This document shows positions 16,290 to 17,105 of a stretch of DNA of 26,193 nucleotides, one piece after another. The notes beneath the pieces were generated by a model. That model was not told the DNA's origin, did not search any database, and saw nothing but the letters and a program-made list of their open reading frames with translations. A program made the position numbers and the translations under genes. Source of the stretch: a virus (taxonomy: Duplodnaviria > Heunggongvirae > Uroviricota > Caudoviricetes); IMG/VR virus record IMGVR_UViG_2671180431_000011; one strand, 5' to 3'. Position 1 is the first letter of the stretch. Every line of letters begins with the position of its first letter.

Positions 16290-16309
16290 AAGTGCGCGTT
16301 AGCGCACTT
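16290..16309. terminator. Perfect palindrome between convergent int and cargo gene C (possible bidirectional terminator)
   Basis: AAGTGCGC-GTTA-GCGCACTT at 16290-16309, overlapping the stop codon of gene C (16308-16310). Confidence 0.4.
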
Positions 16310-17105
16310 ATTCAAATAGTTCAGGGAATACTAATTGTAGTGAATTCATGAATTTATCAATATCTTCAGGAGGTTCTTGCTCACGAAACCACTTGTCACA
16401 CACTTCATTGACATAAATTTTCGCTTGTCCGACCTTCAAGGATTTATTCTCTCGTCCACTTTTATCAGCAGGGTTATAGTGCAAACTTAAAATAAAATTT
16501 CTAACCTTTACTTCTTTTCCCTTTTTTGAAACTATATTGTAGTCAAAATAACATTCATCACCGGTAAACGCATTTGCTATGGGGCTCTTTTTAAAATGAT
16601 ATCGGCACTCATCAAGCCTATCAGAAATAGCCTTATATTTTTCAAAATCACCAGAGCTAAGGTAGCTGAACCAATTTTTAAAGTAACTTAATGAATCAAG
16701 TTTCTGATGGTAAATAAAGAAACCTGCATGTTTCTCATCAGAAATATATCTTGTTACTAACTGTAACATGCCTTCAAAGACACCATTATACGAATTCCCT
16801 CTTTTTGCTTCAGCGAGCCAAGTAAAGCTCTGATCACGATCCTGAACTGTAATATCGACGGAACCATTAGATTTTGTTTGTTCAGATGCGTTGTACCCAA
16901 CACCTTTGAGAAATAAAACCAGTAAATTAGTGATCTTATCTTCATCATCTGAATAATATTTATCCGCAGTCTTCTCAATATGCTTAATTGCATTATTTAT
17001 ATCGGCATATAGACTTTGTACAAACACATCCTCATCGAATGGCTTCAAGTTTACCAGCGCGGCTAATTCGGCAGGTGTTATATTTTGAAGAAAATTATTT
17101 GACAT
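16308..17105 (-). CDS. Cargo gene C: hypothetical protein with PD-(D/E)xK-like nuclease motif (265 aa)
   Basis: ATG at 17105 overlaps the gene B stop by 11 nt. Motif GSVDITVQDRDQSFTWLAEAKRG (D ... ExK). AT-rich coding sequence. Confidence 0.6.
   Translation of the reverse strand: MSNNFLQNITPAELAALVNLKPFDEDVFVQSLYADINNAIKHIEKTADKYYSDDEDKITNLLVLFLKGVGYNASEQTKSNGSVDITVQDRDQSFTWLAEAKRGNSYNGVFEGMLQLVTRYISDEKHAGFFIYHQKLDSLSYFKNWFSYLSSGDFEKYKAISDRLDECRYHFKKSPIANAFTGDECYFDYNIVSKKGKEVKVRNFILSLHYNPADKSGRENKSLKVGQAKIYVNEVCDKWFREQEPPEDIDKFMNSLQLVFPELFE

Follow-up and report, generated by a model that had tools for sequence, protein, structure and literature searches.

A cassette of three minus-strand genes, here termed A, B and C, is located in IMG/VR virus record IMGVR_UViG_2671180431_000011, the 26,193-nucleotide stretch of DNA that was analysed as a whole and is referred to as the window in the following. 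The window consists of Escherichia coli chromosome with a lambdoid prophage at tRNA-Ser(CGA), near mtfA, tRNA-Asn and yeeJ, and the cassette lies between the prophage integrase and the tRNA-Ser attachment site, with gene C (16308..17105, minus strand; 265 amino acids) being the last of the three. Gene C encodes a predicted PD-(D/E)xK nuclease, and on the basis of family conservation, structural modelling and gene context we propose, with a probability of roughly 60%, that this protein serves as nuclease effector in an exclusion or defence cassette carried by the prophage. Alignment and model indicate that gene C very probably represents a new sequence family inside the PD-(D/E)xK superfamily. 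The nuclease fold itself is ordinary; the interest lies in the package that surrounds it.

An original prediction, made from the letters of the DNA, had described a hydrophobic strand with an Asp followed some 15 residues later by E-A-K and had taken this as a PD-(D/E)xK-like core. The plus-strand translation of 16308-17105 contains stop codons throughout, so that the gene meant must be the minus-strand open reading frame (ORF). The segment concerned, GSVDITVQDRDQSFTWLAEAKRG, corresponds to residues 81-103 of gene C (G81-G103; nucleotides 16797-16865, minus strand) and contains the codons for D84 (16854-16856), E99 (16809-16811) and K101 (16803-16805), all on the minus strand, with exactly 15 residues from D84 to E99. 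The bare motif by itself, which had rightly been offered as no more than an inference from a motif, is weak evidence and not above chance: a loose test pattern (hydrophobic-D-hydrophobic, 8-25 residues, hydrophobic-E-x-K) was present in 4.1% of 20,000 composition-preserving shuffles of the gene C protein as well as in 6 out of 48 unrelated ORFs of the neighbourhood. It is the conservation of the motif together with the predicted fold that leads us to judge it as more than a chance occurrence.

Among 5.8 billion proteins searched by word index, only 15 close clusters were found for gene C (45-98% identity), all of them from Enterobacterales and none of them named. Invariant among the 16 close homologues are D54-E55-D56-K57, G81, D84 and E99-A100-K101-R102-G103 as well as E111-G112, Q115, R119-Y120 and the C-terminal P212-x-D214-x-S216. 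When 1.84 billion cluster representatives were searched exhaustively with HMMER, the family grew to 403 relatives at E ≤ 1e-3, mostly 200-280 amino acids in length, i.e., to about 400 representative clusters at 50% identity. For an alignment of 158 representatives, the gene C protein was combined with 157 of these relatives, pairwise identity being limited to ≤ 50%. Across this set, E55, G81, D84, E99 and K101 are conserved to 100%, W96, Q115, R119 and Y120 to 99%, and G112 and L116 to 98%. Two of these positions are typical of the fold and had not been listed in the original prediction: E55 (16941..16943, minus strand), an acidic residue within the DEDK motif, and Q115 (16761..16763, minus strand), which belongs to the conserved block G112-x-x-Q115-L116-x-x-R119-Y120 (EGMLQLVTRY in gene C).

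The AlphaFold2 model of gene C, computed from the 16-sequence alignment (predicted local distance difference test score, pLDDT, 81.3; predicted template modelling score, pTM, 0.68), consists of a helix (55-69), three strands (72-75, 85-88 and 95-102), a second helix (106-120) and a further strand (126-133), and the predicted core therein is the α-β-β-β-α-β arrangement by which members of the PD-(D/E)xK superfamily are recognized. In the model, E55 forms the N-terminus of the first core helix, D84 directly precedes the second strand, E99 and K101 reside inside the third strand, and Q115 is situated within the helix that follows the ExK strand. Placement of the Asp on strand 2 and of ExK on strand 3, conserved among homologues, is likewise a hallmark of the superfamily. 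Taken together, alignment and model assign the full classical signature to the gene C family, with an acidic residue on helix 1, Asp on strand 2, ExK on strand 3 and Gln on helix 2, and E55, D84, E99, K101 and Q115 are the predicted active-site residues. The proposal of a PD-(D/E)xK-like core has therefore held up, including the fold prediction that had been suggested as its check: D84, E99 and K101 are invariant throughout the family, and the model places them at or in strands 2 and 3 of the core.

The nearest structural matches of the gene C model are Type II restriction enzymes and McrC, with match figures of 8.0 for BamHI, 7.6 for OkrAI, 7.3 for BstYI, 7.2 for BglII, 6.5 for SwaI and 6.3 for McrC. 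The CdiA-CT EC869 DNase (6.5), R.BspD6I (6.1), HamA and FokI (5.5 each), NucS (5.2) and NucC (4.9) complete the series. On the sequence level, gene C matches a single entry in PHROGs, phrog_9664, which is listed as "unknown function". Eight out of 60 relatives gave sub-threshold Pfam matches (PDDEXK_9 in four cases, Mrr_cat in two, HSDR_N and HamA in one each), all of which are restriction-endonuclease-type families, PDDEXK_9 and Mrr_cat being the only ones matched more than once. One gene C homologue shows a weak PADLOC match to LmuA across the core.

Gene C carries a second nearly invariant motif, P212-x-D214-x-S216 (NPADKSGR; 16458..16472, minus strand), that is distant from the catalytic core in sequence and sits in a loop with a pLDDT below 50. 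Its conservation is complete in family alignments A1 and A3 and reaches at least 90% in A2, and it may constitute a partner interface, an additional active-site element or a regulatory site.

Important information about the role of gene C stems from its occurrence as a domain of larger proteins. The C domain forms the C-terminus of NACHT proteins with HEAT repeats (900-1,200 amino acids), of one NB-ARC protein and of pentapeptide-repeat proteins (family representatives P0047, P0081, P0087, P0098, P0110, P0137, P0069, P0113 and P0134), and in the alignment of 158 representatives the catalytic residues are kept in all of these fused forms. In STAND NTPases, effector domains usually occupy the N-terminus, and it is unusual for such a domain, here a nuclease, to be placed behind the repeats. 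Being employed as part of STAND NTPases is a typical trait of immune effector domains. The suggestion that gene C is the likely effector of its operon gains weight from these fusions to NACHT/NB-ARC and pentapeptide-repeat proteins, and in addition from the facts that gene C is the best conserved of the three genes and the only one with an enzyme signature. The fused forms also bear on the notion that the motif is coincidental or that C is a degenerate relic devoid of catalysis, serving as a nucleic-acid-binding or structural protein. Such a notion could draw on the frequency of the bare motif by chance and on the finding that curated nuclease families give gene C no significant sequence match. 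We nevertheless consider it highly improbable, because four or five catalytic positions are invariant in 158 diverged representatives, fused forms included, which argues for purifying selection acting on the active site. Loss of the catalytic residues is typical of PD-(D/E)xK domains that have become inactive.

In the window, gene C is preceded by gene B (17095..17526, minus strand), which encodes a small, acidic, soluble protein of 143 amino acids when read from the ATG at 17526, and by gene A (17507..18559, minus strand; 350 amino acids), the product of which has a predicted RdgC-like fold and is a putative DNA-binding sensor or loader. For gene B, a TTG at 17532 is given as start in the ORF listing, and annotation with PGAP yields either 131 or 143 amino acids. 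Genes A and B overlap by 20 and genes B and C by 11 nucleotides, and A-B-C probably form a translationally coupled operon. The cassette has a guanine plus cytosine (GC) content of 30-34% as compared to about 49% on both flanks. It is bordered by tRNA-Ser(CGA) (18697..18786, minus strand), the integration site of the prophage, the 3' end of which faces the cassette, and by the prophage tyrosine integrase (15298..16284, plus strand; Pfam Phage_integrase, 6.4e-10), which is convergent with gene C and separated from it by a gap of 23 nucleotides. Further away in the window, the early-left part of the prophage (12200-14450) contains a frameshifted hypothetical gene, yfdP, a YfdQ-family gene and a gene for an HD-family hydrolase, located upstream of a DUF4224-integrase pair.

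Among 5,426 complete E. coli genomes, 16 carry the cassette, and RefSeq annotates genes A, B and C in E. coli as hypothetical throughout. Two E. coli strains deserve mention. Gene A of E. coli E-ge-1 (NZ_CP158503.1; locus L015, 3770-4640) is interrupted in its 5' end by an IS1 element, with B and C remaining intact; B and C are tolerated by this strain in the absence of a full-length A. In E. coli L37 (NZ_CP034589.1; locus L016, 657-4560), the same tRNA-Ser is occupied by another prophage with an A-B-C cassette of 79% identity, and the early region of that prophage contains bona fide rdgC, ParB-family, DGQHR-domain and DUF550 genes.

Protein A is basic (isoelectric point, pI, 8.6), has several conserved Arg and Lys residues and is predicted to adopt the RdgC fold. 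The next structural matches are CENP-L, Iml3, Chl4 and CENP-N, and Iml3 and Chl4 have already been described as RdgC-like. The exclusion protein RexA of phage λ is a non-specific DNA binder with an RdgC-like fold (PMC11077077). Membership in the RdgC family is not apparent from the sequence of protein A, which gave no match to Pfam RdgC, and a comparison with bona fide prophage RdgC by hhalign yielded a probability of 0.06%. Protein B is acidic with a pI of 4.4, and its homologues are always located between A and C. Neither A nor B matched any entry in Pfam, NCBIfam, PADLOC or among PDB sequences, the PDB searches returning chance matches only, and scans of distant A, B and C homologues against Pfam, NCBIfam and PADLOC produced nothing at threshold. 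Membrane segments are absent from A, B and C (highest Kyte-Doolittle value for a 19-residue window ≤ 0.82), and Pfam and PADLOC scans did not detect an NTPase motif in the cassette.

The gene arrangement is remarkably constant. In every examined locus with upstream flank available (about 40), C is preceded by both partner genes. The A-B-C order is kept in E. coli relatives with 48% identity at the same integrase-attachment (int-att) position, in a Pantoea prophage beside tail-fibre genes, in Atlantibacter, Serratia, Shewanella and Pseudoalteromonas, and in a Vibrio Vinavirales element, where the cassette adjoins the integrase. The same holds true for viral contigs: in 29 out of 29 IMG/VR contigs, ORFs of A size (346-402 amino acids) and B size (134-162 amino acids) precede the C homologue on the same strand, and iterated jackhmmer searches recognize A in 27 and B in 25 of these 29 loci. 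A contig with an A-B-C cassette that is assigned to "Streptomyces sp. NPDC088196" (L009; 1,885 bp) was rejected as evidence for an occurrence in Actinobacteria, as it has a GC content of 33.7% and is almost certainly a contaminant.

Proteins B and C might also be looked upon as parts of a toxin-antitoxin or addiction module, with C as a toxic nuclease, B as its inhibitor and A as a regulator, that stabilizes the prophage or hotspot cargo rather than providing immunity; in part, such a module would be compatible with abortive-infection defence. Protein B is indeed small and acidic and its gene overlaps the start of C by 11 nucleotides, as in many antitoxin-toxin pairs, and the disruption of A in strain E-ge-1 would be tolerable if B alone neutralized C. 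The conserved unit in the roughly 40 loci comprises three genes, however, and not a B-C pair, such a pair lacking an A-sized gene having never been seen. In addition, family scans and a PDB profile search did not reveal an antitoxin-type DNA-binding domain in B, and the fusion partners of the C domain are STAND NTPases, i.e., immune sensors, and not components of toxin-antitoxin systems. In view of this evidence, a toxin-antitoxin module appears unlikely.

The sites occupied by the cassette are consistent with accessory cargo. P2-like phages of Serratia and of about 12 viral contigs carry it between the genes for portal protein gpQ and replication protein gpA, and in most of these viral contigs it is the only sizeable cargo at this site. 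The P2 gpQ-gpA locus carries old and tin, and Rousset et al. (2022; PMC9122126) have demonstrated that it is a hotspot for systems acting against phages. A P2-like prophage of Serratia proteamaculans has an additional ORF of 329 amino acids without Pfam match (L007, 3002-3991), situated between the portal gene and A; this ORF was considered as a conserved fourth component and rejected, since none of the other fetched loci contains a homologue, and is therefore probably separate cargo. A metagenome-assembled genome of Acinetobacter bereziniae (L012, 4526-9867) contains a cassette with a short C in a small island, flanked on one side by a P4-type integrase and on the other by a Type III res helicase, a GmrSD-family enzyme and an N6/N4 methylase. 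Seven phages converting to Shiga toxin (Stx) 1a possess a version with proteins of 350, 130 and 221 amino acids between the genes for antiterminator Q and stx1A on the opposite strand, as exemplified by Stx1_499 (LC567825.1; L013, 3454-5561; Q-stx1A site). B and C of the Stx1a phages are homologous to B and C of the window, and iterated jackhmmer connects B of the Stx phages with the B family, and A with two distant A proteins. The A proteins of the Stx phages and of Acinetobacter are related to each other, and relatedness to A of the window was not detectable by hhalign or iterated jackhmmer; hhalign comparisons of the A and B profiles with A' and B' from Acinetobacter and Stx phages were not significant. 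Recurrent siting in defence islands or phage hotspots, a generic trait of defence systems, is thus documented for the cassette.

The same distribution speaks against a housekeeping function, in which an RdgC-like recombination modulator and a nuclease would serve phage recombination, replication or the degradation of host DNA during lytic growth. RdgC modulates RecA, some prophages carry bona fide rdgC in their early region, and Hjc is among the weak Foldseek matches of gene C. The PD-(D/E)xK fold is shared by many recombination exonucleases and resolvases of phages. The cassette has never been found in an early recombination region, though, but in variable cargo loci of unrelated phages (λ-like int-att, P2 gpQ-gpA, Stx Q-stx and Vibrio Vinavirales). 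It is rare and patchy in E. coli, atypical in its GC content and transcribed opposite to the neighbouring phage operons, and the prophage of E. coli L37 holds a true rdgC in addition to the cassette. A housekeeping role is accordingly regarded as very unlikely.

A further alternative is that C acts as a modification- or sequence-specific restriction enzyme, Type II- or IV-like, that cuts foreign DNA directly with A as recognition or clamp subunit and without any sensing of infection. The closest structural matches of C named above fit this idea, as does the predicted DNA-ring-binder fold of A, and the lack of a methyltransferase in the cassette would suit a modification-dependent enzyme. On the other hand, the similarity to Type II enzymes exists on the level of the fold only, with identities of 11-15%, and Pfam and PADLOC did not recognize an SRA, YTH, Mrr-N or GmrSD-type reader or a GTPase/ATPase motor. 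The nearest methyltransferase is that of the prophage itself, about 13 kb off and neither in nor beside the cassette. We rate a restriction enzyme of this kind as decidedly unlikely.

Returning to C as the effector of a defence cassette, the following scenario can be envisaged, in which nuclease activity, its substrate, the functions of A and B and the defence phenotype are what we infer from the data described above. A-B-C would constitute accessory cargo of temperate phages that is probably expressed from the prophage. The basic, RdgC-like protein A would bind DNA or a DNA-protein intermediate made by an infecting phage, and the small, acidic protein B would link A to C or restrain C. Once activated, C would act as a metal-dependent nuclease on nucleic acid, most likely DNA, and cleavage would destroy the invader or abort the infection such that the lysogen population is protected. 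The assignment of A as a sensor of DNA or intermediates and of B as a coupler or inhibitor is tentative. Equally speculative is a broader hypothesis, according to which A-B-C is an undescribed, widespread form of temperate-phage immunity: the RdgC-like ring A would survey DNA or replication-recombination intermediates and license nuclease C via B, and the same nuclease module would have been captured independently as the output of NACHT/NB-ARC receptors. If this were true, the sensing of infection by RdgC-type DNA clamps would be a principle common to the cassette and λ RexA, with a different effector being coupled to it in the cassette.

Several points weigh against a nuclease effector in a defence cassette. 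The support is computational throughout. Pfam, NCBIfam and PADLOC scans of gene C gave no match at E ≤ 1, a match to a curated PD-(D/E)xK family profile was not obtained, and phmmer and profile searches with gene C against PDB sequences returned chance matches only. Foldseek comparison of the gene C model with the PDB yielded nothing at E ≤ 1e-3; the weak matches still belong mostly to the same fold as the structural matches given above (YaeQ, Hna, HindIII, OkrAI, EcoRV and Hjc). DNA binding by A is not assured, as the RdgC fold also serves as a protein scaffold in CENP-L/N and Iml3/Chl4, and hotspot siting is only circumstantial because such loci also hold toxins and other cargo. A promoter-like site upstream of gene A (TTGAGA-16-TATCAT; 18613..18640, minus strand) agrees with the consensus in 10 of 12 positions and is statistically indistinguishable from background; it is weak evidence, since such sites are not more frequent in the region than expected from shuffled sequence.

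Both the gene C family and the three-gene system appear to be uncharacterized, and the cassette is a good candidate for a novel system of nuclease-based defence against phages. No domain model and no entry in the defence catalogues searched were found for the gene C family, nor any trace in the literature, and literature searches by RefSeq accession, PHROG identifier and RdgC-related keywords did not retrieve a description of the cassette. The sites of the cassette are those at which temperate phages carry their anti-phage functions: the old/tin hotspot of P2, the λ-like int-att region, the Q-stx region of Stx phages and an Acinetobacter defence island. If validated, A-B-C would be a new entry for the defence catalogues, represented among others in Stx1-converting phages and in Klebsiella and E. 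coli prophages, and would assign a function to phrog_9664. Protein A would then be the second RdgC-like protein in phage exclusion after RexA, and the sensing step of Rex-type systems, long obscure, would become easier to test.

With regard to known systems, the gene C family shares with the PD-(D/E)xK superfamily (Pfam clan CL0236) the predicted core together with the acidic residue on helix 1, Asp on strand 2, E-x-K on strand 3 and Gln on helix 2. It differs from Type II enzymes such as BamHI, BglII, BstYI and OkrAI not only by its low identity to them but also by an additional C-terminal region of about 130 residues that carries the invariant PxDxS motif, by its invariable association with two partner proteins and by the lack of an adjacent cognate methyltransferase. 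A PD-(D/E)xK module under the control of separate sensor proteins is reminiscent of HamA in Hachiman, LmuA in Lamassu, McrC, NucC in CBASS and the Mrr/REase domains of Avs and bacterial NLR proteins, and for HamA and LmuA this likeness extends to weak profile matches among gene C family members. The partners are different: they are neither the Hachiman helicase nor the SMC-like ATPase of Lamassu, the GTPase McrB or the cyclase of CBASS. HamB helicase, LmuB SMC-like and McrB AAA+ GTPase domains were not found in A, B or their homologues with Pfam, NCBIfam and PADLOC. Instead, A has a predicted RdgC-like fold and B is novel. END nucleases, single-protein iEndoIII fusions (PMC12191111), were considered and are unrelated to the cassette.

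Rst_3HP resembles A-B-C in consisting of three domain-less hypothetical proteins encoded at the P2 gpQ-gpA hotspot, and has been shown to protect against phage P1 (Rousset et al., 2022; PMC9122126). An identity of the two was rejected, since hmmsearch and blastp detected no significant homology of Hp1, Hp2 and Hp3 to A, B and C; the sizes differ as well (333, 359 and 227 vs. 350, 143 and 265 amino acids), and A-B-C is not among the systems tested in that study (PMC9122126). Compared with E. coli RdgC, protein A is without sequence similarity and possesses an extra N-terminal helical region. A RexA-like protein was likewise dismissed as an identification for A, as there is no sequence similarity between the two. 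The λ RexAB system nevertheless offers a parallel, in that both are prophage-encoded and feature an RdgC-type protein that could sense DNA or DNA-protein complexes. The cassette differs from RexAB in that a RexB-like multi-pass membrane protein is missing and that its effector is a predicted soluble nuclease.

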